DNA from: a virus
Lineage: Duplodnaviria; Caudoviricetes
Virus record (IMG/VR): IMGVR_UViG_3300048853_000118
Coordinates: 1-52,832 of that record
DNA: 52,832 nucleotides
Direction: 5' to 3' (one strand)
The notes beneath the pieces are model-generated. The model had not been told where the DNA came from, ran no database searches, and worked only from the letters and a program-made list of their open reading frames with translations. Made by a program: the position numbers and the translations under genes. Positions 6,589-22,537 of the stretch are shown piece after piece; position 1 is the first letter of the stretch; every line of letters begins with the position of its first letter.

Positions 6589-7062
6589 TCACTCTTTCGT
6601 TTTTGCCCGGGCGCGGGGCTGGCGGCTCGACTTCGAGCGGGTAGGGTTGAGCGCGGCCAGCTCGTCGCGGCGCTCGGTCAGCATCTGGATCGCGGCGCGG
6701 CAAATCGCTGCCATCGTTGCGGCATCGCGATCCGGGTGCGCACCGTAGAACTCGGTGACGCTGCGCCGGCCGGCGCCGTAGCCGACCGAAACGCTGTATT
6801 CGTCCTCGTCGTGCCGGATGTTCAGCGCATGCTTGATCGCCAGCGCGCCGGCCGCGCGCGGCTCGCGCCGCCACTTCGGCAGCACCTCGCTCGAGCGCAG
6901 GCCGCTGATGCCGCCACCGCCCGGGCCCGTGGCCAGGTAGACGTTGGAATCGCGGTACACGCCAGCAGGCTTGGTGGCGCGCTTGTCCAAGTCAAGGCGC
7001 GCCAGAGCGATCTCTTCGACGATGGCTTGGCTGATGTATTCGTTGTCCCACTGCTTGCTCAT
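6589..7062 (-). CDS. First gene of PL operon, hypothetical
   Basis: Start MSKQWDNE preceded by GGAGAG; LPKWRRE...LAIKH...AICRAAI. Confidence 0.65.
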   Translation of the reverse strand: MSKQWDNEYISQAIVEEIALARLDLDKRATKPAGVYRDSNVYLATGPGGGGISGLRSSEVLPKWRREPRAAGALAIKHALNIRHDEDEYSVSVGYGAGRRSVTEFYGAHPDRDAATMAAICRAAIQMLTERRDELAALNPTRSKSSRQPRARAKTKE

Positions 7063-7115
7063 GTAGCTCTCCAGAACAGCGGCTCGGTCTGTGCTGAGCT
7101 CGCTCAATGGATTTG

Positions 7116-7143
7116 ATTATAGCGATTCGCTAAATTAAGTAAA
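7116..7143 (-). promoter_or_regulatory. PL-like sigma70 promoter
   Basis: Minus strand TTTACT-N16-TATAAT, overlapped by operator 7120-7132. Confidence 0.7.
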
Positions 7144-7166
7144 GCGAAAAATATAGCGGCGCGCTA
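7120..7166. promoter_or_regulatory. OL operators (TAGC-N5-GCTA)
   Basis: TAGCGATTCGCTA at 7120-7132 identical to 13482-13494; TAGCGGCGCGCTA at 7154-7166. Confidence 0.85.
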
Positions 7167-7184
7167 ATTTCGCGCTATACTTCG

Positions 7185-7545
7185 GTCTTTGGTCGAGTTT
7201 GACTGGATGCGGGCCGCTTGATGTGGCCCAAGATCCGAGCTGACGGCATCAGCCGCTTCACTCGTCGGGAACCGCCGGCAGGGGTGAGGGGATAGGCGTA
7301 CTGTGGGAATGGTCTGAGATACGCACGCGGGCAGCGAAGTTAGCACCTGCGGACCGGAAAGGCTGACGAGTCGTAGTAGACGGCGTACCGATCTAATACG
7401 TAAAGGCTCCGCGTTCGACAGGAAAGCTGAGTCTTCGTCCCAGCCCCCGATAGTACGAAACCCAGACTGGGGTTGAAGTTAGAGGATGAGCAGATACAGC
7501 ATCAAGCAGTACCTCTATTCGGTGTTGTTAGTACCTATACAAGGT
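7185..7545 (+). ncRNA. Candidate structured non-coding RNA / leader
   Basis: No credible ORF; TATACT at 7176-7181; serial hairpins at 7211-7229, 7239-7253, 7256-7289, 7296-7324, 7441-7475, 7480-7517. Confidence 0.5.
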
Positions 7546-7567
7546 GCGAAAAGAAAAAAGGCCGCGA

Positions 7568-7933
7568 ATGGCGAAAAAAATGACCCTGTCGGGCTACCTG
7601 GCGCAGAGGGGAACGAAGGCGAAGGCGCTGACACGAGGCGAGGCCGCGCTGCTGGGCATTCCGTACCCGCTGCAGGCTGGCTGGCCAAGGCGGTACGGCG
7701 CGGTGGAAATCGACGACGATTTGTTGCTGAGGCTCGCAGCATGCGCCGAGTTGGCGCGCCAAGCAGCCGAAGAAAGGGCGATCCGCGCTCGCGAGAAGAG
7801 TACGGGCTCATCGGCGGCGCTGCAGCAATTGACGCTGATGCCGAGCGCGCCTGTTACGATGAAGGTCGTTGCGGGATTCGTGCTGCGCCGGGCTCGCCGA
7901 TACTGTACACGCAAGCCAGCACCTTGGACGTAA
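7568..7933 (+). CDS. Hypothetical protein downstream of the structured tract
   Basis: MAKKMTLSGYL...LTRGEAALLGIPYPLQAGW; ends at terminator hairpin. Confidence 0.6.
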   Translation: MAKKMTLSGYLAQRGTKAKALTRGEAALLGIPYPLQAGWPRRYGAVEIDDDLLLRLAACAELARQAAEERAIRAREKSTGSSAALQQLTLMPSAPVTMKVVAGFVLRRARRYCTRKPAPWT

Positions 7934-7955
7934 AAAAGCCCGCTTAAGACGGGCT
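7932..7955. terminator. Intrinsic terminator between convergent genes
   Basis: A6-GCCCG cttaaga CGGGCT; U-tract on minus strand. Confidence 0.7.
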
Positions 7956-7977
7956 GGTGTTTCGCGATCGAAGGGAG

Positions 7978-8805
7978 TTATCTAGGCGGCGCCTGTTGAG
8001 GGGCGGTGGGCGGCACTGGTGAACCGGCTGTGCGGCCGGCCTCGAACGCAGAAATCGTAGAGCTGACAATGCTGAGATTCGACGCTTGGGTACCGAAGTA
8101 GGCAGCTAGAGCAATACCTAGAACCGAAAGGATTGTCGTTATTGATGTAATCCAAAGCGTCTGCTTCAAATTGCCCGCGCTTTCTGCCGCAGCCACAGCC
8201 CGCTCGGCCAGCAGGCTCATAGCTCGCTCGCTGCCGCTGACCTGGGCTGCAAGAGCGTCCATCTTTCCTTCAATTGATGAGAGGCGGCCGTCCATGCGCA
8301 GCTGCATGTTCTCTATCTTAAGGTCAATTTCGCTTTGGCTCGGTGTACTCATAGGTGCATGATCTTCTGTAGACGCAGGGCTGTCAACTCGATTGGTATC
8401 GCGCGCCTGTATGGTGCTGTTGATTTCGGCTGTACGGCGATTCGCAGCGGATACAAACTTCTTTGAGAGTTCATCGATGATTTTGTTCACAGCCCCGGCG
8501 TTTGTCCGCGGCATTGACAGACTATCAATCGATGCGCCCGCCTCTAGGGCTTGGGCCGTCGCCAGCATTTGCTCGGTGACCCTACGAGTGATTCCATGCA
8601 AAAGCCTTTGCACCTCGGTATAAAGCGCGGTCAGCTTATCGCCATCAATGCGCGGGGCCTCTACCTCAACCAGCATTTCTTCGAGAGCGTTGATTATCAT
8701 ATGATAATCTGCAGATGTTCGGCGCTCGAAAGAGTCAGCATTTGCCGGCTCTTTGACGGCCTCTCGTAAACTGGCGATTGCGCGCCTCGCTTCTAACACT
8801 TCCAC
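7978..8805 (-). CDS. Coiled-coil protein with C-terminal TM helix (accessory)
   Basis: EIDLKIENMQLRMDGRLSSIEGKMD heptads then WITSITTILSVLGIALAAYF; GGAGG RBS. Confidence 0.7.
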   Translation of the reverse strand: MEVLEARRAIASLREAVKEPANADSFERRTSADYHMIINALEEMLVEVEAPRIDGDKLTALYTEVQRLLHGITRRVTEQMLATAQALEAGASIDSLSMPRTNAGAVNKIIDELSKKFVSAANRRTAEINSTIQARDTNRVDSPASTEDHAPMSTPSQSEIDLKIENMQLRMDGRLSSIEGKMDALAAQVSGSERAMSLLAERAVAAAESAGNLKQTLWITSITTILSVLGIALAAYFGTQASNLSIVSSTISAFEAGRTAGSPVPPTAPQQAPPR

Positions 8806-8969
8806 TTCGCCTCCAGAATCAGAGCATTCAGCTAAACATCGCGACGCGCAAAAACGTCACCGATGCAGGTCGCACATCACGGCCGAAGTTGGTGCGCTTG
8901 TCGGTACTTCGCAATCCATCCCTGTTTCAACGCCCACCGCACCTCAGTGCGCCAGGTAATGTGCCGCCC

Positions 8970-9308
8970 TTAACAAGCGATGTTCAGGTGTTTTTTAGCT
9001 GCGGTGCAGTTCAGCGCAAGCTCAACGGTGCGGCCCTCCTTTGGGTTGAAGACCGTGAAGACCAGGAAGCTTGTACCATTACACTTCGCGCTAATCGATC
9101 CATCAGCTCGCCGTGTGGCGCCTGACACCTTTTTACAGGTTGGATGATTTTCTTTGATAATCTTGGACGCTACGGCTTGGGCCTCGCCCTTTGGGGCTGC
9201 TCCAACGCTGATGCCGGCAGCCTCTAAGGCGGCTGGAACCAATAACGCGCTCGCAAGAATTGCGGCAACGGCAAAGTTTCTCTGCATTTTCGATTTCGAG
9301 TCCGGCAT
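8970..9308 (-). CDS. Small exported protein, 4 Cys
   Basis: Signal peptide RNFAVAAILASALLVPAALEA; start could be the second Met. Confidence 0.75.
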   Translation of the reverse strand: MPDSKSKMQRNFAVAAILASALLVPAALEAAGISVGAAPKGEAQAVASKIIKENHPTCKKVSGATRRADGSISAKCNGTSFLVFTVFNPKEGRTVELALNCTAAKKHLNIAC

Positions 9309-9376
9309 CTCAGCGTGCCGTTTCGCTCACGCGAGTATAGCTACGCAGCTGGCCTTGAAATCTAGCCAATAGTCAC
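9303..9376. repeat. 74-bp direct repeat, copy 1
   Basis: 63/74 identical by manual alignment to 11700-11773; contains minus-strand TTTCAA...TATACT. Confidence 0.9.
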
Positions 9377-9710
9377 TGAGTCGCCAGCCGTATCGCTTCT
9401 TCCGCCTTTAGCTGCCAATTAGTGCATGTGCTGGACATGCGCGGCAGGGAGGGGGTAAGGATTTGTTGCAGGCGATGCTAACTGAGCACAGCAGTCGGGT
9501 GAGAATGTCCTTGCGTACCCGCCCTGCCAACATGATCGCAGAGTCTGGCTGCAACTGATATTCGGACTGATTGGAGCGGCATTTGCTGAAATTCAGGATC
9601 AAGACGGCAGGCATCCGCGCAATAAGCTAAGCCGAAACGAAACGTGGAGAGATTAAACGGAGTTCTCCCCACGGTTCGTGTGCTATAAACTTTTAAATGC
9701 AATGTGGCGG

Positions 9711-10610
9711 TTAAGCCTTTCCGAGACAGTCTTTCGCTTGCATGCAGTCATTCACGCATTCAAAATATGGTATTCCATCCTTCTTCGGCGCCGTAGGTAG
9801 CGTTTTGTCTGAACAATCGCGTATGCAAATCGCTTTTACCGCGCGGCAACGGGACTGCTCATCTCCAGGGGAGGGGCCGCTGCCGCCGCCTGAGGACGAG
9901 CAACCTGTGCCGTAGTTGATGCACCACCATGAAGGTGGAACAGAGGGGGTATGTGGATCCTGAATAGGTGGAGGAGGTTTAGGCCCAGTGATGATAACCG
10001 GAGGTGGGGGCTCTCCACTGCCAGCTCCGCTACTTGCTTCGCCTGGACCGCTATCACTTGGAACGTCGCAGTCTTCACATACGGCAAGCGGGGAAACGGG
10101 CTCATCAACATTTCCAAGTAAAAATTGATCGCGCAATCTTTTTCTAGCTGTTTCAAAACTCTTCGTAATGCTCACCGCCTTTTTATTTGATATAGAGCTT
10201 AAAAAGGTCCAAGTGAGTGTGCCATCGCACGCTTGCTCAATCTTAAAGTTGAGTTTAGGAACATCGTCGGCCACTAATGTACAGTTAACCTCAGGGCCGG
10301 TGCGTGCTAACGAGCATAGGGCTACCGAAGACTTTGTAATCGCAAACCATGACAGTGGAGAATCTTCGATGAAAGCGCCAAAAATTATCCTTCTAACGTC
10401 GACAATCTTATTCGGCATCTTTACCGCGAGGCACCTGCCGCCGGCTGTGCTACAGACCTGTACATCAGCTCCACCCGCCCAGTTTCCAACGAGCTGCGGC
10501 GCAGCTTCCGCTGCTGCCACTCCTGTTGAAAACAGAACAAAAAATGCACTTACTGCAGAGGAGCAAATAAAATTTCTTAAACTTTGCTGAATCATTGGTT
10601 CTCCGATCAA
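9711..10610 (-). CDS. Secreted Cys-rich protein, candidate polymorphic toxin/bacteriocin
   Basis: Signal peptide ending GVAAA, Pro/Gly/Ser linkers, C-terminal Cx6Cx3C-x18-Cx3Cx5C domain; AT-rich. Confidence 0.6.
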   Translation of the reverse strand: MIGEPMIQQSLRNFICSSAVSAFFVLFSTGVAAAEAAPQLVGNWAGGADVQVCSTAGGRCLAVKMPNKIVDVRRIIFGAFIEDSPLSWFAITKSSVALCSLARTGPEVNCTLVADDVPKLNFKIEQACDGTLTWTFLSSISNKKAVSITKSFETARKRLRDQFLLGNVDEPVSPLAVCEDCDVPSDSGPGEASSGAGSGEPPPPVIITGPKPPPPIQDPHTPSVPPSWWCINYGTGCSSSGGGSGPSPGDEQSRCRAVKAICIRDCSDKTLPTAPKKDGIPYFECVNDCMQAKDCLGKA

Positions 10611-10666
10611 TATGGCGAAATGCCAAATAAATTCTCGGAGATCTACTCTTTCCTTGTCAATATTTA

Positions 10667-10897
10667 TTAACTAGCGGGGGGTATTTTATGCTTATTGACT
10701 GGGTTTAAATCTGGATACTGCATGCCTATCGGGTATATTAGCTCTAAGTAGAGTTCACCCATCGTTTTTCCCACTCCCTGCATCAACTTCGATCGGTCAG
10801 GTTCGCTAATCTTATCGACGCTTTCAGATAGTTCCGCAAGTGAGCGAGAGATGATGGTTATTTGGTCCATCAGATTTTTTGCTGTTTCATAGTCCAT
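10667..10897 (-). CDS. Small helical protein, candidate immunity protein
   Basis: MDYETAKNLM...GVGKTMGELYLELIYPIGMQYPDLNP; GGAG RBS; adjacent to the Cys-rich protein. Confidence 0.6.
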   Translation of the reverse strand: MDYETAKNLMDQITIISRSLAELSESVDKISEPDRSKLMQGVGKTMGELYLELIYPIGMQYPDLNPVNKHKIPPAS

Positions 10898-11202
10898 TTT
10901 AAAGCTCCAGTGTGAATGAATGAGAAAACGCCTTTAATCCTAGATTGAATTTTCTTTTTCAATAGCGTAATTTACCTACCGGTACAATGGATCATGACAC
11001 AAAAAATCGCCGGCGGTTTTACAGCGATTAGTGTAAGCATTTTAGCCTTCTAACTCAAATTAATTAATTGGCTCCTAAAATGGCTCCACAATTTACCGCT
11101 CGTTAAATGTTGTTGAGCCTCATGTCGCAAGCGGTTAATTTTCCGACCCAATTTGCATTGATTGGATCCAACTGGCGACGTGCCGTCTTATCAGGCGTGC
11201 CA

Positions 11203-11682
11203 TCATATTGCCTTCGGCCCGCACGCTTGCTGCCAGCGCGCCAGAAACATCTCTTCTTCAATCAATTCGTCTAATCGAGAATCGGAAGGCGGTGAAATAT
11301 CTGTGCCATCTTCTCGAATGCTGATGTACGCCCGTAGCCGAGCATTCTTGCGCTCGAGTCGCTCGATGAGGTCCTGGGTAGTGGACTCGCCGAGGCGTCC
11401 GCTGCCTTCAATGAAGTTGTTCTCTGGACCGTACGAGATGTACTTCTTGAATCCGACGTAGCCGCCCATGCTGTTCTTGGCGTTCACTTCTCCGCAGAGC
11501 ACGCCGGCCTTCGTGATGCGTTCATTGCGAGTCTGGGCGCTCGCCGGATCCTTGAGCAGGCTGATCATCGGTTCGCGGGCCTTCGGGATGGCGACCCAAT
11601 CGGCGTACTTCTTGAAGAACACTGCAGCAGCGAGGGCGACAAGGATGACCAGGCCGAGAAGGGCGGTTTTGGCTCGATTCAT
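11203..11682 (-). CDS. Membrane-anchored exported protein
   Basis: N-terminal TM; LKDPASAQ...LCGEVNAKNSMGGYVGF motif common in prophage accessory genes. Confidence 0.8.
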   Translation of the reverse strand: MNRAKTALLGLVILVALAAAVFFKKYADWVAIPKAREPMISLLKDPASAQTRNERITKAGVLCGEVNAKNSMGGYVGFKKYISYGPENNFIEGSGRLGESTTQDLIERLERKNARLRAYISIREDGTDISPPSDSRLDELIEEEMFLARWQQACGPKAI

Positions 11683-11699
11683 GTTCTGCGACTACCGGG

Positions 11700-11773
11700 C
11701 GGCATCTAAGCGTGCCGTTTCGCTGGCGCGAGTATAGCTGTGGGGCAGGTGTTGAAATCTAGCTAATAGTCAC
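11700..11773. repeat. 74-bp direct repeat, copy 2
   Basis: Matches 9303-9376; includes the stop codon of 11770-12345. Confidence 0.9.
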
Positions 11774-12345
11774 GGCGCGATGGGTCGCGCAGCATTTCTC
11801 TTCACGACTTCTTGAATCCGTCTGCGCTCGGCGGTCGCCGCTTCGGCGGACAGGAATTTCGTGTAGCACTTGCTGTTCAGATCGCACAGGATGCTGATGC
11901 TTATCTCTGGGCGATCCCAGCTCGCATAGCTACGATACGAAGCTGATGGTTTAGACATCTTGGGAGGCCCGAACCTGGCTGAGATCGAATCGACGATCTG
12001 CTCGAATGGGTGATTATTGCTGGACTCAACGGTGAACTGCTGCAAAGTGCCGTCTTTGGCGATGCTGCCTTCAAACGCCGCAAATGCTGCCCACTTTGGC
12101 CGTGCATCCTCCCCAGGAACGTGTAGCGCGCCGTTGGTCGTGCCAGCGCCTCCTGGTCGAGAGTAGATCCAGCAAAGCGGAGCGCTGTCCTTCGGCGGCG
12201 CATCTTTGCATTTCCGGACTGGCGTCTGCAGTTTTGCACCCAGCGGCAGGCCGAGTACAGTGATCGACTCAGCTGCGCTAGCGGGCCTGGCAGTGGTGAC
12301 GAGTTGGCCGGCGGCGATGATGAGCAATGCGGCAATTTGTCTCAC
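11770..12345 (-). CDS. Exported protein, 4 Cys
   Basis: Signal peptide ending PASA; GTGA overlap with upstream gene. Confidence 0.75.
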   Translation of the reverse strand: MRQIAALLIIAAGQLVTTARPASAAESITVLGLPLGAKLQTPVRKCKDAPPKDSAPLCWIYSRPGGAGTTNGALHVPGEDARPKWAAFAAFEGSIAKDGTLQQFTVESSNNHPFEQIVDSISARFGPPKMSKPSASYRSYASWDRPEISISILCDLNSKCYTKFLSAEAATAERRRIQEVVKRNAARPIAP

Positions 12346-12620
12346 GTGAGCGTCCTTACGTCTATGACTGGCATTTCATCCCACTCGATATGTTCTGCCG
12401 CGGCGATTAGCTCGAAAAGTGGACGCTCCGCGTCGAAGTTTGCGTACGCTCGAGCCGTCCGCCAGCTTGCGTCGTCGCGAGCTACCAGCATCGTTGGCAA
12501 ATCGAACTGATCTTGGATTTGTTCGACAAGGCTTGGTGCATGTCGGCCGCCCAACTGCCATCGTTCAACAAGTACTACTATCGTGCGCTCCCCGCGCAGG
12601 CGCACAACCGAATACAGCAT
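12342..12620 (-). CDS. Hypothetical protein translationally coupled to cI
   Basis: TAATG overlap with the cI stop. Confidence 0.7.
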   Translation of the reverse strand: MLYSVVRLRGERTIVVLVERWQLGGRHAPSLVEQIQDQFDLPTMLVARDDASWRTARAYANFDAERPLFELIAAAEHIEWDEMPVIDVRTLT

Positions 12621-13420
12621 TACAGCCTTTCGCTTTCTCTCCGGACCACGCGGCCCACGATGATGCAGTCCTTGCCGTTACAGACGCGGCGGTAGTATTT
12701 GCGCTGGTCGAGGTGGTCCGACGTCAGCCACCACTGGCCAGCGTCGCGCGTGAGGCGCTTGACCACTGGCTCTCCCTCGTAGTTGATGGCGTAGACGCCG
12801 CCGTCAACCGGGCGGATGTCGGCCAAATTGACTACGACTAAGTCGTCCTCGTAGAGCGTGGGCTCCATGCTTTCGCCCTTCACTCGGATCGCTATCAGCT
12901 GCTCACGGTTGTAGCTGTTCCGGTGGATCCAGTCAGTAGGCACAGCTGTGGTCGACCCGTCGAACCGCTCAGGCTCTGTCTCAAAACCCGCGATCCCCGC
13001 CGATAGGCGAAGTTTTACCTTCGGTATATGTGTGAGAGCGGGATCGTCATTGTCGACCACTCGAACAGGCATGGCCCCAGGCAGCAAGCGCCGCACCTCT
13101 TCGATCGAACGTTCCTTGCCGACGCCGTCAGCTGCCACGTCCGTCAAACCTGTGCTCGCCCATTCAGCGCAATGCTCGGTGTCCATCCAGCCTGTAGGCA
13201 GATTCAACGCTTCCTCAATTCGCCGGGCCATATCGTCACCCATGGCTTTTGGTGTACCGCTTTTACTGTCTGGAGTCTTGTTCTTGATCTGACTGAGATA
13301 GGCCGGCGCCGTGCCAATCCGGCCGGCCAGCTTTGCCTGCGTGCCTGCTCCCTTGGCGTCCGCACTCATAGGGATTGCCAGCAGGAGGTTCAAGCGCCGC
13401 GTTTCGTCATTCGTTTTCAT
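12620..13420 (-). CDS. cI: CI-like repressor (HTH + S24 autopeptidase)
   Basis: TQAKLAGRIGTAPAYLSQI HTH; LSAG cleavage site; VKGESMEP (Ser) and VKRL (Lys). Confidence 0.95.
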   Translation of the reverse strand: MKTNDETRRLNLLLAIPMSADAKGAGTQAKLAGRIGTAPAYLSQIKNKTPDSKSGTPKAMGDDMARRIEEALNLPTGWMDTEHCAEWASTGLTDVAADGVGKERSIEEVRRLLPGAMPVRVVDNDDPALTHIPKVKLRLSAGIAGFETEPERFDGSTTAVPTDWIHRNSYNREQLIAIRVKGESMEPTLYEDDLVVVNLADIRPVDGGVYAINYEGEPVVKRLTRDAGQWWLTSDHLDQRKYYRRVCNGKDCIIVGRVVRRESERL

Positions 13421-13433
13421 AGGCAAGATTAAA

Positions 13434-13498
13434 TAGCAAAACGCTAAAGTAAGGAATGTGCGATTCGCTATTGCAAAACTTTAGCGATTCGCTATACT
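13434..13498. promoter_or_regulatory. OR: three 13-bp operators with divergent PR/PRM
   Basis: TAGCAAAACGCTA 13434, GTGCGATTCGCTA 13458, TAGCGATTCGCTA 13482 (24-bp period); PR TTGCAA(13471)-N16-TATACT(13493). Confidence 0.88.
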
Positions 13499-13505
13499 TG
13501 TGCCC

Positions 13506-13826
13506 ATGGACCTTAAAACCTACCTCACTCAAGGCCGTGGTCGTGGCGCCGCTTTGGCGAAAGCAATCGGCGCACACCCCCCGGACGTCAGCCGCTGGGC
13601 AGACGGCACACGCCCGGTTCCTGTCCACTTCGGAGCGCCGATCGAGAAGGCAACTGACTGCGCGGTGACCCGCAAAGACCTGTTCCCGAACGACTGGGCG
13701 ACTATCTGGCCCGAGCTGGTCCACGAGAATCGGCGCGCTACGGATCCCGTTGCCGAACCCGGCCGCGCAGGTCGCAGTCCACCGAGCGCCGAGAGACTAC
13801 TCAGTCTCGCTGAACCGCCTGAGTGA
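13506..13826 (+). CDS. cro: Cro/YdaS-like regulator
   Basis: GRGAALAKAIGAHPPDVSRW...IEKAT...VTRKDL; divergent from cI. Confidence 0.88.
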   Translation: MDLKTYLTQGRGRGAALAKAIGAHPPDVSRWADGTRPVPVHFGAPIEKATDCAVTRKDLFPNDWATIWPELVHENRRATDPVAEPGRAGRSPPSAERLLSLAEPPE

Positions 13827-15896: not shown

Positions 15897-16342
15897 CTCG
15901 CGCCCGCTACGTCACCCCTGGCCAGACCGCGGAGCGCATCGAGAAGACGCGCCGCCTGGTCGCTGCTCTGCTGGTCGGCCCACTGTCGCGCGCCGAGATC
16001 GGCAACCTGCTCGAGATGGGCCCGTCGGGCGTGCGCAAGTACCTCGCTGACCTGGGCGAGCGCGTCACGTCGGCTCGCGGCGCCGAAGGACTGATGTGCT
16101 ACCTGGCCGTTACGCCGGAGCAGGCCCAGGCCTACCTGGCTCAGCTCGCCGACGCGCCGGTGTCGCGCCCGACCGGCGTGCCAAAGAGCCCGAAGAAAAT
16201 GGGCTCGCTCGGCCCAGGCCGCCACATCCACATCATGCAGGACGACGAGCACTACTCGGTGCGGCTGCACTCGGCGCCGGCGGCGCGCGATCCGCTGGTG
16301 GCTGCGCTGTTCGGTGCCCGTGCGCCGGAGGCGCGAGCATGA
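15893..16342 (+). CDS. Winged-HTH protein
   Basis: GPLSRAEIGNLLEMGPSGVRKYLADL; C-terminal RDPLVAALFG. Confidence 0.7.
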   Translation: MTRARYVTPGQTAERIEKTRRLVAALLVGPLSRAEIGNLLEMGPSGVRKYLADLGERVTSARGAEGLMCYLAVTPEQAQAYLAQLADAPVSRPTGVPKSPKKMGSLGPGRHIHIMQDDEHYSVRLHSAPAARDPLVAALFGARAPEARA

Positions 16343-18396
16343 AGCGCGACCTCATCACCATGCAGTTGGACCTGGGCCACGAGCTCATCATCGACAACTT
16401 CGCCGGCGGCGGCGGGACCAGCACCGGCCTGGAGGCTGCCTTCGGCCGCCCGGTCGACATAGCGATCAACCACGATCCCGAGGCGCTGGCCATGCACGCT
16501 ATCAACCACCCGCACACGAAGCACCTGTGCGAGAGCGTGTGGGACATCGATCCGATCGAGGTGACCGGCAACCAGCCGGTGGCCCTGGTCTGGCTGTCGC
16601 CCGACTGCAAGCACTTCAGCAAGGCCAAGGGCGGCAAGCCGGTCGAGAAGAAGATTCGCGGCTTGGCCTGGGTGACGCTGCGCTGGGCGGCGAAGTGCAA
16701 GCCGCGCGTGATCATGCTCGAAAACGTGGAAGAGTTCAAAACGTGGGGCCCTCTGATCCAGGACGAGCACGGCCACTGGAAACCGGATCCGGCGAAGCGC
16801 GGGAAGACGTTCGAATCGTTTGTGCGCCAGCTGGAGGCCCACGGCTACAAGGTCGACCACCGCGAGCTGCGCGCTAGCGACTACGACACGCCGACGATCC
16901 GGAAGCGCTTCTTCCTGGTCGCGCGCCGTGACGGGCTGCCGATCATCTGGCCGCAGCCGACCAACGGAGCGCCGGATTCGCCGGCCGTCCGCGCGGGGAA
17001 GCTGCAGCCGTACCGCACCGCGGCGGAATGCATCGACTGGGCGCTGCCGTGCCCGAGCATTTTCGGCCGCAAGAAGCCGCTGGCCGAGGCCACGCTGCGC
17101 CGCATCGCGAAGGGCATCATGCGCTACGTGGTTGACGCGGCCGAGCCGTTCATCGTGGGGCAGGGCGGCCCGATCTACGCCGGCAAGCCGGTGACCGCGA
17201 ACCAGCCGTTTGGCACGCTGACCACAGAGAACCACCGCGCGGTGGTCGTGCCGAGCATCGTCCCGGTCACGCATCAGGGTGGCGACCGCAGCGAATCGGT
17301 GCACGAGCCGTTCCGCACGATTACCGGCGCGCAGCGCGGCGAGAAGGCGCTGGCCAGCGCGTATCTGGCGCCGTACTACAGCGACAAGCGCCCGGCGGCC
17401 GCCCGCGGCACGCAGCCGGACGAGCCGGTCCTGACGATCACCACCGAGAATAGGCACGCCCTGGTGACCGCCTTCCTGAACGAGCACGCCAACGCGAGCA
17501 ACCAGCGCGTGATGCCGGCAGACGCGCCGCTGCGCACCGTCTGCGCCCAGGTGAAGGGCGGGCATTTCGGTCTGGTGTCGGCGGCGCTGGTCGGCGTCGG
17601 CGGGCCCGCCGGCGACAGCCGCCCGCGCGGCGTCGCAGAACCGACGGCCACGATCACGGCCAAGGGTGATACTGCGGTCGCCACGGCGTTCTTGGCGAAG
17701 CACTACACCGGCGTGGTCGGCTCGGATCTCGATGACCCGATCGGCACGGTCACGAGCTCGGACCACCACAGCCTGGTCACGGCCCACCTGACGAAGTTCC
17801 GCACTGGCTCGACCGGCAGCGACCTGGCTGAGCCAGTGCCGACCATCACCGCCGGTCCGAAGGAAAACCCGGCTGGCGCGCCGCACGCGCTGGGGATGGT
17901 GTCGAGCCACCTGGTTAAGCTGCGCGGCACTAGCACCGCGGCCGGCGCTGACGAGCCGCTGCACACGATCAGCGCCGGCGGCCAGCATCATGCCGAGGTC
18001 CGTGCGTTCCTGCTCAAGTATTACGGCACCGACCAGGATCCGCGACTGAGCGAGCCTCTGCATACGGTGACAACGAAGGACCGTTATGGCCTGGTGACCA
18101 TCCAAGGCCAGGACTACGAGATTGTGGACATCGGCTTGCGCATGCTGGCGCCGCACGAGCTGTACCGCGCGCAGGGCTTCCCGGCCGACTACGTCATCAA
18201 CGAGATTCCGGACCCGGAACTGCTGTTCGTGGGCGGCGAGCAGGTGGACGGTGACCCGCTGTCGCTCCCGCGCATCCCGCTGACGAAGTCGGCCCAGGTT
18301 CGCATGTGCGGCAACAGCGTCTGCCCGCCGCTCTCCGAGGCGCTCATCCGCGCGAACTTCGCGCACGAACGACAGATTGCCGAGAGGGCAGCATGA
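16339..18396 (+). CDS. C5-cytosine DNA methyltransferase (phage type, repeat-expanded)
   Basis: DNFAGGGG (I), SPDC (IV), MLENV (VI), TIRKRFF (VIII), RAQGF (IX), GNSV (X). Confidence 0.93.
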   Translation: MKRDLITMQLDLGHELIIDNFAGGGGTSTGLEAAFGRPVDIAINHDPEALAMHAINHPHTKHLCESVWDIDPIEVTGNQPVALVWLSPDCKHFSKAKGGKPVEKKIRGLAWVTLRWAAKCKPRVIMLENVEEFKTWGPLIQDEHGHWKPDPAKRGKTFESFVRQLEAHGYKVDHRELRASDYDTPTIRKRFFLVARRDGLPIIWPQPTNGAPDSPAVRAGKLQPYRTAAECIDWALPCPSIFGRKKPLAEATLRRIAKGIMRYVVDAAEPFIVGQGGPIYAGKPVTANQPFGTLTTENHRAVVVPSIVPVTHQGGDRSESVHEPFRTITGAQRGEKALASAYLAPYYSDKRPAAARGTQPDEPVLTITTENRHALVTAFLNEHANASNQRVMPADAPLRTVCAQVKGGHFGLVSAALVGVGGPAGDSRPRGVAEPTATITAKGDTAVATAFLAKHYTGVVGSDLDDPIGTVTSSDHHSLVTAHLTKFRTGSTGSDLAEPVPTITAGPKENPAGAPHALGMVSSHLVKLRGTSTAAGADEPLHTISAGGQHHAEVRAFLLKYYGTDQDPRLSEPLHTVTTKDRYGLVTIQGQDYEIVDIGLRMLAPHELYRAQGFPADYVINEIPDPELLFVGGEQVDGDPLSLPRIPLTKSAQVRMCGNSVCPPLSEALIRANFAHERQIAERAA

Positions 18397-20148: not shown

Positions 20149-20393
20149 ATATCTATACCCGCCAGTTTGTGGCCGACTGCCCGAACAACGGCCAGCCTAT
20201 CATCTACAACCTGAGGATCGAGACCGCTGACCGGATGATCCAGGTCGAGCACATTGTCACCGCTACGACCCTGATCGCGCGCGGCTACCACGAAGAGATC
20301 GCCGATGAGCTTCATCGCCGCTTTGGCGGCCGCCAAGTGCTGCGCGCGCATCACCACGGCGTCGACATCGAGACGATCCGGGAGGAGGCATGA
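20145..20393 (+). CDS. QueF-like T-fold protein
   Basis: FVADCPNNGQP (QueF CPxxGQP), VE, YHEE motifs; ATGA-coupled to next gene. Confidence 0.65.
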   Translation: MNIYTRQFVADCPNNGQPIIYNLRIETADRMIQVEHIVTATTLIARGYHEEIADELHRRFGGRQVLRAHHHGVDIETIREEA

Positions 20394-21094
20394 CGCTGCA
20401 CTATCACGGCACGCCAATCACACCGCACAAGGTGCGGGTCGAGCTGGCCGGGCGCAACTTCTGCACCTCGTTCTGGCGGCCCGACGATGTGGAGTGGTGT
20501 CACCAGTACGGCCAGAGCAACATGCTGGACAACGGGGCATGGTCGGCATTTATGGAGGCCATGCGCCGCGGCGCCACACCGGCGATCGACTGGAAGGCCT
20601 TCTACGCCTGGTGCGAGCGGTGGCTGGAATACCGCACCACCTGGGCAGTAATCCCCGACGTCATCATGGGCGACGCTGCAGCAAACGATGAGCTGGTGCG
20701 CGAGTGGCCATACGGCCAGCGAGGCGCGCCGGTGTGGCACATGCACGAGCCGGTCGAGCGCCTGATGCGCCTGTGCGACGAGTGGGAGCGCGTCTGAATT
20801 GGGTCGTCGGCACAGTACCGCGTGGTTGGGTCAGATATCTGGCACTCGCGCATGACCCTGGCAATGAATGCGATCTGCAAGACCGGGCGCGTGCCGACCT
20901 GGTTGCACATGCTGCGGGGGATGAACGCCGCGCGCTGGGGCTACCCGTTCGCCAGCGTGGATAGCACAGACATCGCCCGGAACCACAACCGCAAGAACAA
21001 TCCGCGCGAGATGGCCGACAACTGGGACGCCATCCAGTGCGCGCCAAGCTGGAAGCGGAAGTACGTTCAGTCCGACCTGCTGGAGGCCGCCTGA
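20390..21094 (+). pseudogene. TGT/DpdA-like transglycosylase interrupted by an in-frame TGA at 20795-20797
   Basis: ORFs 20390-20797 and 20822-21094 share a frame; LDNGAWS, IPDVI, PVWH, RV*IGSS, HMLRG, SVDST. Confidence 0.75.
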
Positions 21095-21123: not shown

Positions 21124-21858
21124 ATGGGAAGCATGCTCACACTGCAAACCACCGGCGGTGCCGACGTCACCATGTCGAGCCGAGAGATCGCCGACCTGGT
21201 TGAGAAGCGGCACGACAACGTTGTGCGCACGATCGAAAGCCTGCTGGCGCGCGGGACAATCGCACTTCCTCAATTTGAGGAAGTCCCGAACGATGGCCCG
21301 GGCCCGAAGACCATCCGACAGTACCGTGTCGGCAAACGCGATTCGTACGTGATCGTGGCGCAGCTGTCGCCGGAGTTCACCGCGCGCCTGGTAGACCGCT
21401 GGCAAGAGCTGGAGGCGAGCGCGCCGCCGTCGGCGCCGGCGGTCCCCCAGTCGTTCGCCGCGGCGCTGCGCCTAGCTGCCGAGCAGCAGGACCTGATTGA
21501 CGCCCAGGCTGCCCAGCTCGCCGCCGCGGCGCCGGCCGTGGAGTTTGTCGAGCGTTACGCCGACTCAACCGGCACAAAGGGTTTCCGCGAGGTAGCCAAG
21601 CTGCTGGGCGCGAACGAGGGCGCGTTCCGCGAGTTCCTGCTCGACCAGAAGATCATGTACCGGCTGAACGGTGCGCTGACGCCGCACGCCCAGCACCAGG
21701 CCGCCGGCCGCTTCTGCGTGAAGGCCGGTACCGCCCAGAACAACCACGCCTTCAACTCGGCACGCTTCACCCCGAAGGGCGTGACCTGGATTGCAGGCGA
21801 ATGGGCGAAGCACCAGGTGGCGCGCCGCCAGCGGCAGGGGGAGGTGGCCCATGCGTGA
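21124..21858 (+). CDS. Antirepressor (Rha-like N-terminus + ANT/KilAC C-terminus)
   Basis: MSSREIADLVEKRHDNV; PQSFAAALRLAA; APAVEF; FTPKG. Confidence 0.88.
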   Translation: MGSMLTLQTTGGADVTMSSREIADLVEKRHDNVVRTIESLLARGTIALPQFEEVPNDGPGPKTIRQYRVGKRDSYVIVAQLSPEFTARLVDRWQELEASAPPSAPAVPQSFAAALRLAAEQQDLIDAQAAQLAAAAPAVEFVERYADSTGTKGFREVAKLLGANEGAFREFLLDQKIMYRLNGALTPHAQHQAAGRFCVKAGTAQNNHAFNSARFTPKGVTWIAGEWAKHQVARRQRQGEVAHA

Positions 21859-22537
21859 CTACTCCCCGCTGCGCGGCCTGGCCGCCGCCAACCCGACCGT
21901 GCACCTGAAGTCGACGACAGTTGTCGAGCTGCTGGACGAACTGGACCGCCTGCGCGCCTCCGCGGCGCCGGCCAAGGTGAAGCGCAACGACTATCCGGCG
22001 GACTTCGAAGCGGTCTGGGAGGTCTACCCCGCACGTCCTGGCGACAGCAAGAAAGCAGCGCACAAAGCCTGGGCCGCGCGGCTGGCCGCCGGCGCCACAG
22101 TGGCCGAGATGCTCGCCGGCGCGCAGGCATACGCCGCCTTCGTAAAGGCCATGAAGATTGAGTCGATGTACATCCTGCAGTCCGCCACCTTCTTCGGGCC
22201 CAGCGAGCGGTATGCGGCCGACTGGACCCCGCCCGAGGTGCAGAAGAAGCCTGCGGGTGCCGGCAGCGCTTGGTGGGCGAGCGACGCGACGATCCTGGCC
22301 AAGGGCGCCGAGCTGGGGCTGTCGCCGCGGTCCGGCGAGTACATGGGCCAGTTTAAGGCGCGCATCGAGGCCGCGATGGATCCTGCTCTCGTGCCGCCGG
22401 CCGCCGCGTCGCCGATCCGTCCGGTGATCGCCCTGCCGGCGCCGGCAGAACCTGAGCAGCGCGCACGCAAGCCCGAGGGAATCGGATCGCTGAAAGACCT
22501 GGTGCGTCGCGAGCCCCCGCCGGCAAAGGCAGCATGA
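21851..22537 (+). CDS. Protein with replication-initiator C-terminal-like domain only
   Basis: FEAVWEVYP...SKKAAHKAW...ATFFGP; only ~45 aa precede it, no evident N-terminal wHTH. Confidence 0.65.
   Translation: MRDYSPLRGLAAANPTVHLKSTTVVELLDELDRLRASAAPAKVKRNDYPADFEAVWEVYPARPGDSKKAAHKAWAARLAAGATVAEMLAGAQAYAAFVKAMKIESMYILQSATFFGPSERYAADWTPPEVQKKPAGAGSAWWASDATILAKGAELGLSPRSGEYMGQFKARIEAAMDPALVPPAAASPIRPVIALPAPAEPEQRARKPEGIGSLKDLVRREPPPAKAA

Follow-up and report, generated by a model that had tools for sequence, protein, structure and literature searches.

A pseudoknotted RNA of the orphan family RF02932 behind a putative operator-controlled early promoter of a provirus

We analysed a provirus record of 52,832 bases from IMG/VR (the window), in which the tract between an operator region near 7.1 kb and an open reading frame (ORF) at 7568–7933 holds a structured RNA. 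The RNA, at 7254–7371 on the plus strand, almost certainly belongs to the Rfam family RF02932, the Betaproteobacteria-1 RNA. Judged from related loci, the conserved molecule is about 195 nucleotides (nt) long (7250–7445), compared with the 120 nt of the Rfam model, and has five covarying helices, P1/P1a, P2, P3, P4 and P5, held together by two pairings of pseudoknot or loop–loop type and probably by a third. Because it occurs beside different genes in other phages, the RNA is, on the sequences compared, a portable early-operon module of diverse temperate phages, not tied to ORF 7568. The locus is a further member of a known orphan family, with a better-defined size, fold and regulatory setting.

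The match to RF02932 spans the whole model (positions 1–120 of 120) and, at 84.1 bits (E = 4.2e-14), clears the gathering score of 49.4. It was the sole match above the curated cut-off when the entire window was scanned with Rfam 15, and a permissive scan of 6900–8100 (E <= 10) added other families only as chance-level rows, with E of 4.6–8. A first-pass annotation of this DNA had proposed a structured RNA and an Infernal-type check against Rfam; the check returned this full-length match, to a catalogued core that the annotation had not recognised. The three consensus hairpins of the family are found here as P1/P1a, P2 and P3, with 7, 2 and 3 pairs, respectively, changed on both sides. RF02932 originates from a survey of 224 motifs (Weinberg et al., 2017; PMC5737381), in the main text of which the word 'Betaproteobacteria' occurs 0 times; the supplements of that survey may describe the motif's pseudoknots and gene context. 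The function of RF02932, its size limits and the conditions of its expression were not found in searchable texts, survey supplements excluded. Relative to the Rfam consensus line, the locus adds a 3' domain of about 75 nt (P4, P5 and a tail), two pseudoknot pairings and an operator-controlled early context; the size and the pseudoknots are new relative to that printed line only, and the survey supplements may hold some of them.

The tract itself is not plausibly coding. From 7108 to the ATG at 7568 a credible ORF is absent, the listed ORFs being one of 36 amino acids (aa), one of 60 aa and an out-of-frame one of 153 aa, and the G+C content is 0.54–0.57 as compared with 0.66–0.73 upstream; the ORF list and the drop in G+C thus bear out the long gap without a credible ORF that had first drawn attention here. 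The minimum-free-energy of the tract is modestly unusual (z = -2.2; 2 of 100 shuffles fold equally well). Related lineages differ by insertions and deletions of 1 and 2 nt within the core, so that no reading frame is conserved in it. A conserved minus-strand ORF over the RNA was considered, since one frame is open in 6 of 10 lineages, and was rejected in view of the stop-poor strand and the same 1–2-nt changes.

Relatives were collected both through the downstream ORF and through the RNA. Homologues of ORF 7568–7933 were found in 10 viral contigs, a Massilia genome and 54 protein clusters. RF02932 is present in three of the ten viral ORF loci (L002, L003 and L004), 312–314 nt 5' of the ATG, and in the Massilia locus 315 nt 5' of the ATG. 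In four phages the RNA is 95–98% identical over 372–412 nt, while the ORF products are 62–75% identical and the promoter region has diverged; the copy in the Massilia prophage shares about 85% identity over 480 nt, and there the ORF product is 39% identical. A frameshift leaves 45 aa of the ORF in L004 (L004 3001–3138), and the RNA is still 98% identical to that of the window. This frameshift may mark a real pseudogene or an assembly error. A search of genome contigs with a profile of the ORF gave two loci, and a pattern search for the P2 loop gave 30 loci in viral contigs, 21 of which are matched full-length or nearly so by our own covariance model, R1 (199 positions). Across all 69 sources R1 matches 24 loci strongly, together with one weak genomic match in L016, and all 11 of the related loci that were submitted to Rfam exceeded the RF02932 cut-off.

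Two GenBank records also carry the RNA. In Acidovorax phage AP1 (OM049504.1 11852–12059; L079 4972–5179) it occupies an unannotated 293-nt gap directly after the primase gene; the other record is an uncultured siphovirus (MW202545). In the latter, two coding sequences annotated as 'hypothetical protein' run across the RF02932 RNA (MW202545.1 5652–6109; L080 3807–4264). The motif was present in 2 of 151 genomes sampled from the order of the Massilia genome, and some RNA-bearing viral contigs, such as L022, are AT-rich, suggesting that the range may exceed the Betaproteobacteria. A blastn search of 7100–7960 against 50,697 phage records gave no match.

Comparison of 24 related loci showed that conservation extends about 75 nt past the Rfam model. 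The extended core described by R1 lies at 7250–7453 on the plus strand, and its helices were assessed by counting pairs, with column shuffles and slid partners as controls, over two alignments of 21–25 distinct sequences. In the model-based alignment A7, with 25 distinct rows, pairing holds in 82.6% of 1099 cells, as compared with 69.6% after column shuffles (0 of 500 as high) and with 36–45% when partners are slid by 1–3 columns; 31 of 50 pairs are altered on both sides. An alignment made with MAFFT only gave a similar picture. RNAalifold run on the raw MAFFT alignment gave a muddled result, in which long-range pairing of the 5' and 3' parts competed with P1, and it was not adopted.

Covariation supports each of the helices. 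P1 (7256–7263/7282–7289) and P1a (7264–7268/7275–7279), which together comprise CTTCACTC/GGGTGAGG with GTCGG/CCGGC, are 79–80% paired, with 6–7 of 13 pairs changed on both sides. P2 (7296–7300/7320–7324; GCGTA/TACGC) is paired in 95% of cells, P3 (7339–7344/7362–7367) in 100% and P5 (7404–7412/7426–7434) in 85.5%; P4 (7372–7380/7392–7400), which includes CGTA/TACG, is 71–76% paired. The helix PK1 (7327–7331/7346–7350; GCGGG/CCTGC) forms a pseudoknot, its 3' strand lying inside the P3 loop; it is paired in 95–97% of cells, and 3 of its 5 pairs have changed at both positions. The invariant unpaired blocks are CUGUGGGRA, CUGAGAUAC and GGCGAAG.

A further pairing of pseudoknot or loop–loop type, PK2 (7311–7314/7352–7355), connects the P3 loop with a variable stretch in the loop of P2. 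This pairing is recognised by complementarity within each sequence, in every lineage, with 4–6 nt of pairing in 15 of 15 distinct loop pairs. The helix differs by lineage (GGUC:GACC, GCUC:GAGC, GCUC:GGGC, GAUGCU:AGCAUC, GCGCU:AGCGC, GCCC:GGGC and GCGCA:UGCGC), and AP1 adds an eighth helix sequence, GGGGC:GCCCC. This pairing replaced an earlier version of PK2, between the P3 loop and the 3' tail, which was 63% paired. A third pairing, of the 3' tail (7438–7442) with the invariant part of the P2 loop (7304–7308), probably exists as well; it is a candidate judged by eye, in that every form of the tail, UCCCA in the window and CUCAC, UCCAC, UUCAC or UCCGC elsewhere, is able to pair with the invariant GUGGGA. 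The molecule is thereby redefined as one of about 195 nt with two or three pseudoknots, which matters to structural and biochemical work.

G-U pairs are frequent, with UG in 16–18 rows at three pairs, and the fold is therefore specific to the plus strand. The proposal of a structured RNA read from this strand is accordingly well supported, by the G-U pairs and by strand-specific covariation, and the covariation check on collected homologues that had been suggested did find covarying helices. All the stems listed in the first-pass annotation are readable in the sequence. Those corresponding to P1/P1a, P2, PK1 and CGTA/TACG covary, and a GTC/GAC stem falls outside the supported model. Four others are conserved in close relatives with too little variation for covariation to be judged: GGGCCGC/GTGGCCC (7211–7229), GCTGA/TCAGC (7239–7253), CAGCCCC/GGGGTTG (7441–7475) and TAGAGG/CCTCTA (7480–7517). 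The G-rich run that had been pointed out exists, and is simply the 3' strand of P1; its G-tracts are not conserved in other lineages.

The RNA lies directly behind a control region. Two operator palindromes of the form TATAGCG-N3-CGCTAAA were found by pattern search at 7118–7134 (exact) and 7152–7168 (one mismatch). Their best copies elsewhere are at 13480–13496 (exact) and 13432–13448 (two mismatches), between the gene for a CI-like repressor (12620–13426) and that for a Cro-like protein (13506–13823), so that the description of the tract as operator-adjacent holds. A leftward promoter-like site on the minus strand, TTTACT-16-TATAAT (7116–7143), was flagged by consensus scan only and would serve the early operon that runs from 7062 towards the integrase gene. 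For rightward transcription, a putative -10 hexamer, TATACT, can be read at 7176–7181, in the same ...GCTATACTT context as 13488–13499 at the cI/cro switch, and in the close relatives, as in 20 aligned relatives, a TAnAAT hexamer occupies the equivalent place, 11–12 nt 5' of the first hairpin. We infer that 7110–7185 is an OL-type control region with divergent promoters, the leftward one flagged by the scan and the rightward one putative, and that rightward transcription would start at about 7187–7190.

As the operators that overlap the putative promoter are also those of the cI/cro switch, the RNA is very likely a lytic-phase RNA, in agreement with the first-pass annotation, and its sequence setting suggests that it is probably an immediate-early, repressor-controlled transcript. 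For an orphan RNA family this locus supplies a concrete setting: with operators in common with cI/cro, the RNA should come on when the lysogen is induced. The transcript data available for comparison consist of assembled contigs only, from which strand, ends and level cannot be read. Among them, one 904-nt contig of a relative, from a root metatranscriptome, spans the equivalent of 7235–7544 together with about 594 nt of unlike upstream sequence. Of further contig sets, X17 gave no match, and X12 and X1 are probably DNA.

The conserved core is flanked by further structure on both sides. In the minimum-free-energy fold, the 5' part of the plus-strand leader (7191–7253) forms the hairpins HP1 (7191–7204) and HP2 (7211–7229, closed by 7205–7208/7233–7236) and a hairpin at 7239–7253. 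On the 3' side, the alignment of relatives marks out 7441–7548, with hairpins at 7441–7475 and 7480–7517 and the conserved block AGTACCTATACAAGGTGCG at 7530–7548. This last block (AGTACCTATAnAGGGTGCG) lies about 20 nt 5' of the ribosome-binding site of the ORF and is non-coding, an in-frame stop following it in L005; it includes a Shine-Dalgarno-like AAGGTG that is too distant from the ATG to serve the ORF.

The same slot is filled by a different RNA in sister phages. Seven of the ORF loci lack RF02932, and six of them (L005–L010) hold in the same space a different conserved sequence of about 300 nt, which we call type B (at about 2560–3000 in L005–L010; also in L047–L074, alignment A9). Type-B and RF02932 leaders share the promoter position, the first two hairpins, a 3' block and the downstream ORF: HP1 and HP2 are common to type-B leaders, where HP1 shows compensatory changes, and the 7530–7548 block is common to type-A and type-B leaders. 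A search with the 5'-hairpin pattern gave 29 loci, comprising 23 of type B, two of type A and four unrelated, and in 15 of the 23 type-B loci the ORF starts 327–337 nt after the pattern. Conserved blocks are present in type B, and its hairpins show compensatory changes; neither an Rfam family (E <= 10) nor R1 matches it. The idea that it is a reduced RNase P RNA was rejected, as it has no significant likeness to host RNase P RNA (p 0.2–0.99). Together, the portability of RF02932 and the presence of type B in the same slot point to a class of early phage RNAs.

In all the phages compared the RNA is co-oriented with the genes downstream of it, and the neighbours vary. The RNA follows a cro-like gene in L022 and L044; it follows the primase gene and precedes a run of small nin-like ORFs in AP1, and in MW202545 a small ORF and a gap separate it from a primase-like gene upstream. 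It precedes an O-like gene in L023, a ParB-like gene in L025, small ORFs and a RecE-like exonuclease gene in the L021 lineage, and an 88-aa ORF followed by a gene for a large ATPase-like protein in L016 and L075. A Cys-rich ORF of 83 aa is also among the genes downstream. In five lineages (L021, L022, L025, L030 and L042) a hairpin plus U-run stands directly 5' of the RNA. The 110–190 nt directly 5' of the RF02932 core in these lineages and in L039 are structured and end in a long hairpin and U-run, two crossing helices of pseudoknot topology can be drawn by eye in this stretch of L021 and L030, and the stretch looks like an attenuator or a separate small RNA.

How might such an RNA act? We favour, tentatively and with somewhat less than even confidence, an RNA domain that is self-contained, binds a partner and is produced early in lytic growth. 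In this model the prophage would have a short early transcription unit whose 5' untranslated part is about 7188–7567 and whose order is a promoter overlapped by repressor operators, the structured RNA, the 121-aa ORF at 7568–7933 and a hairpin at 7937–7955. Once repression by CI is lifted the RNA would be made and would act as plus-strand RNA, the compact domain either remaining embedded in early transcripts or being cut out of them. With its invariant unpaired nucleotides it would bind a conserved cellular partner (a small ligand or a protein complex), possibly in trans, and the RNA itself would thereby play a role of the host-takeover or counter-defence type. A self-contained RNA is favoured because the molecule is portable, is conserved where the ORF is broken and is swapped for another large RNA in sister phages. 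Its anatomy, with several pseudoknots and invariant unpaired blocks, resembles that of specific-binding RNAs and not that of a base-pairing small RNA. No recurrent complementarity between the core and downstream sequence was found across lineages (12 sequences), a 7-nt GUACUGU/CAGUAC recurring within the window's own lineage only. We rank a self-contained RNA above a base-pairing small RNA, a regulator dedicated to ORF 7568 and a replication primer.

Several points weigh against this interpretation. The putative partner is its weakest link. Every lineage has a same-strand ORF starting 0–165 nt downstream, and the RNA is without a terminator of its own, which fits a cis-acting leader equally well; in L025 and L046 about 10 nt separate the conserved 3' tail from a ribosome-binding site and ATG. 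The high nucleotide identity among close relatives could stem from recent exchange and not from selection. The putative rightward promoter was read in the sequence and not flagged by the consensus scan, which missed it because its -35 is poor. A discrete, stable RNA is likewise a prediction from sequence, and the metatranscriptome contig of the relative shows neither ends nor strand. Finally, the control for PK2 is weak, in that the lowest cognate score is equalled or exceeded by 84 of 210 non-cognate loop pairs, and PK2 is only 30% paired when scored by fixed alignment columns, because the loops are misaligned there.

The strongest rival, though on balance an unlikely one, is that the fold is a cis-acting leader, perhaps riboswitch-like, that controls the downstream genes through their translation start, the stability of their mRNA or the access of Rho. 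In addition to the constant same-strand ORF and the closely following start codons just described, a pseudoknotted fold with invariant unpaired bases is aptamer-like, and type B fills the slot before the same ORF much as alternative riboswitch classes can precede one gene family. However, the downstream genes are mutually unrelated (the PYPLQAGW-family ORF, the 83-aa Cys-rich ORF, O-like, ParB-like and others), their start codons lie anywhere between about 10 and 165 nt from the RNA, and a shared expression platform was not found. In the window no plus-strand terminator lies between RNA and ORF, the RNA is kept where the ORF is frameshifted, and a same-strand downstream ORF is to be expected anyway in gene-dense phage operons. 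The permissive Rfam scan gave no riboswitch match (E <= 10). The suggestion that the tract is a leader for ORF 7568 is correct in the physical sense, as the RNA does lie within the 5' untranslated region of that ORF, but the family also precedes unrelated genes, and L004 retains an RNA 98% identical to that of the window before a frameshifted ORF.

A bolder version of the self-contained RNA, which we consider rather improbable, is that RF02932 and type B are interchangeable cargo of a repressor-controlled immediate-early cassette, ordered as promoter, RNA and small conserved protein, each RNA neutralising or hijacking a conserved host component as lytic growth begins. That component could be the sensor or signal of a defence system, a nuclease or a part of the transcription or translation machinery. 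If true, the two RNAs would be the equivalent, in RNA form, of protein anti-defence loci, where cargo that varies lies 5' of a small regulator that is conserved. Mimicry of ribosomal RNA was tried and rejected: 4 of 7 lineages align best to host 16S at about 716–759 (L076; mononucleotide shuffles give p of 0.005–0.27), where the RNA of the window itself fails to align (p 0.74), so that the likeness is unconvincing and probably due to chance. The 16S-like stretch of the core is GGCGAAG..AGC.CCC (window 7334–7350).

Processive antitermination, of the kind brought about by HK022 put or Bacillus EAR, is improbable to a greater degree. It would allow read-through, including through the hairpin at 7937–7955, and convergent transcription into the cI operon. 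The RNA does lie directly behind an operator-controlled early promoter, no N-like protein was recognised in the window, the 7937–7955 hairpin is a weak terminator on the plus strand, and in AP1 the RNA stands between replication genes and the small nin-like ORFs. On the other hand, the window has a single copy, outside both main early operons, and the hairpin and U-run of the five lineages named above precede the RNA and do not follow it. Same-strand intrinsic terminator-like sites downstream number 0 in 7 kb (L022) and 0 in 7.3 kb (L023), Rho-dependent sites lying outside the scope of that scan, and the architecture is unlike the two-stem put RNA. The earlier suggestion of a put-like RNA is not supported, in view of copy number, architecture and the lack of downstream terminator enrichment in two relatives.

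A self-cleaving or catalytic RNA that processes the early transcript at a module boundary is very improbable. Its double or triple pseudoknot with invariant junction nucleotides and its sharp 5' boundary directly after the upstream elements would suit such an RNA, and small ribozymes are common in phage DNA; the basis is purely one of analogy, however, and no ribozyme family of Rfam is matched at E <= 10.

Least probable of all, and not supported, is a replication primer or origin in which, as with ColE1 RNA II, an R-loop of the transcript primes DNA synthesis: early transcription, a G-rich plus-strand segment, a GC skew that is positive across 7100–8150 and the proximity of replication genes in several phages (primase in AP1 and MW202545, O-like in L023, ParB-like in L025) would be in keeping with it, but the G-run is a strand of a covarying RNA helix with unconserved G-tracts, what selection preserves is RNA pairing, G-U pairs included, and not DNA repeats, the RNA lies at differing places relative to replication genes, and iterons or other DNA-level origin features were not seen. 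Against the premise on which the origin idea had been put forward, that no complete initiator/helicase pair is recognisable, stands an initiator- or helicase-loader-like gene at 21791–22534.

The ORF that follows the RNA in the window, of the PYPLQAGW family, encodes 121 aa (7568–7933, plus strand; ribosome-binding site AAGG at 7558–7561). Its 54 protein clusters include none with a name, and no Pfam domain was found. An AlphaFold model of the product (pLDDT, predicted local distance difference test, 73) begins with a small N-terminal domain of three helices, followed by one long helix and a tail that is basic and disordered, and a Foldseek search gave no match at E <= 0.001, the best rows being MerR/RacA-like and IF2 N-terminal-like at E > 1. 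The cassette is closed by the GC-rich hairpin at 7937–7955, which scores as a terminator on the minus strand only, its plus-strand U-tail being weak.

In the wider window, the left arm comprises the integrase and excisionase genes and then minus-strand early genes as far as 7062/7107; the divergent neighbour at 6589–7062 has likeness only to unnamed phage clusters. The immunity region (7108–13500) is unusually long, with the OL-type operators (7118–7168) and OR (13432–13496) at its ends. Between them lie the plus-strand cassette of RNA and ORF, which is transcribed convergently with the cI operon, and six genes on the minus strand that lack a PHROG function, among which is a low-GC block at 9.5–11 kb (0.40–0.49). 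The rightward early region holds genes for a large DNA methyltransferase (16096–18396), a queuine tRNA-ribosyltransferase-like protein (20390–20794) and an Ant-type anti-repressor (21124–21855), in addition to the initiator- or helicase-loader-like gene.

Among known phage RNAs, ROOL and GOLLD are likewise phage-borne, highly structured, embedded among phage genes and of unexplained function (PMC5737381). They are several times larger than RF02932 and often lie beside tRNA genes, whereas ARAGORN found 0 tRNA or tmRNA genes in the window, and the window gave no GOLLD or ROOL match. HK022 put and Bacillus EAR resemble the window RNA in their position behind an early promoter and in being RNA and not protein. 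The put RNA, a pair of neighbouring stem-loops of about 70 nt that is present once behind each early promoter, lies upstream of the terminators that it suppresses; compared with these general properties of put, the window has a single copy of a multi-helix, pseudoknotted fold of about 195 nt, and the terminator-like hairpin in five lineages is upstream of the RNA. Literature searches on HK022/put and on prophage leader RNAs turned up nothing relevant. A primer of the ColE1 RNA II type has a G-rich segment, a persistent hybrid at the origin and an antisense regulator, whereas 7185–7545 lacks a promoter-like site on the minus strand and its G-run pairs within the RNA. The c4 RNAs of P1 and P7 and the CI RNA of P4 are alike in being structured RNAs in the leader of a phage operon, before a small gene. 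A c4-like antisense RNA was considered for the window and found no support, as there was no Rfam c4 match and no conserved complementary target downstream (12 sequences). These immunity RNAs undergo RNase P-dependent processing, of which the ...CACCA tail at the 3' end of the RF02932 RNA in most lineages is reminiscent; they are made in the lysogen, however, whereas the window RNA has a putative promoter under repressor control.

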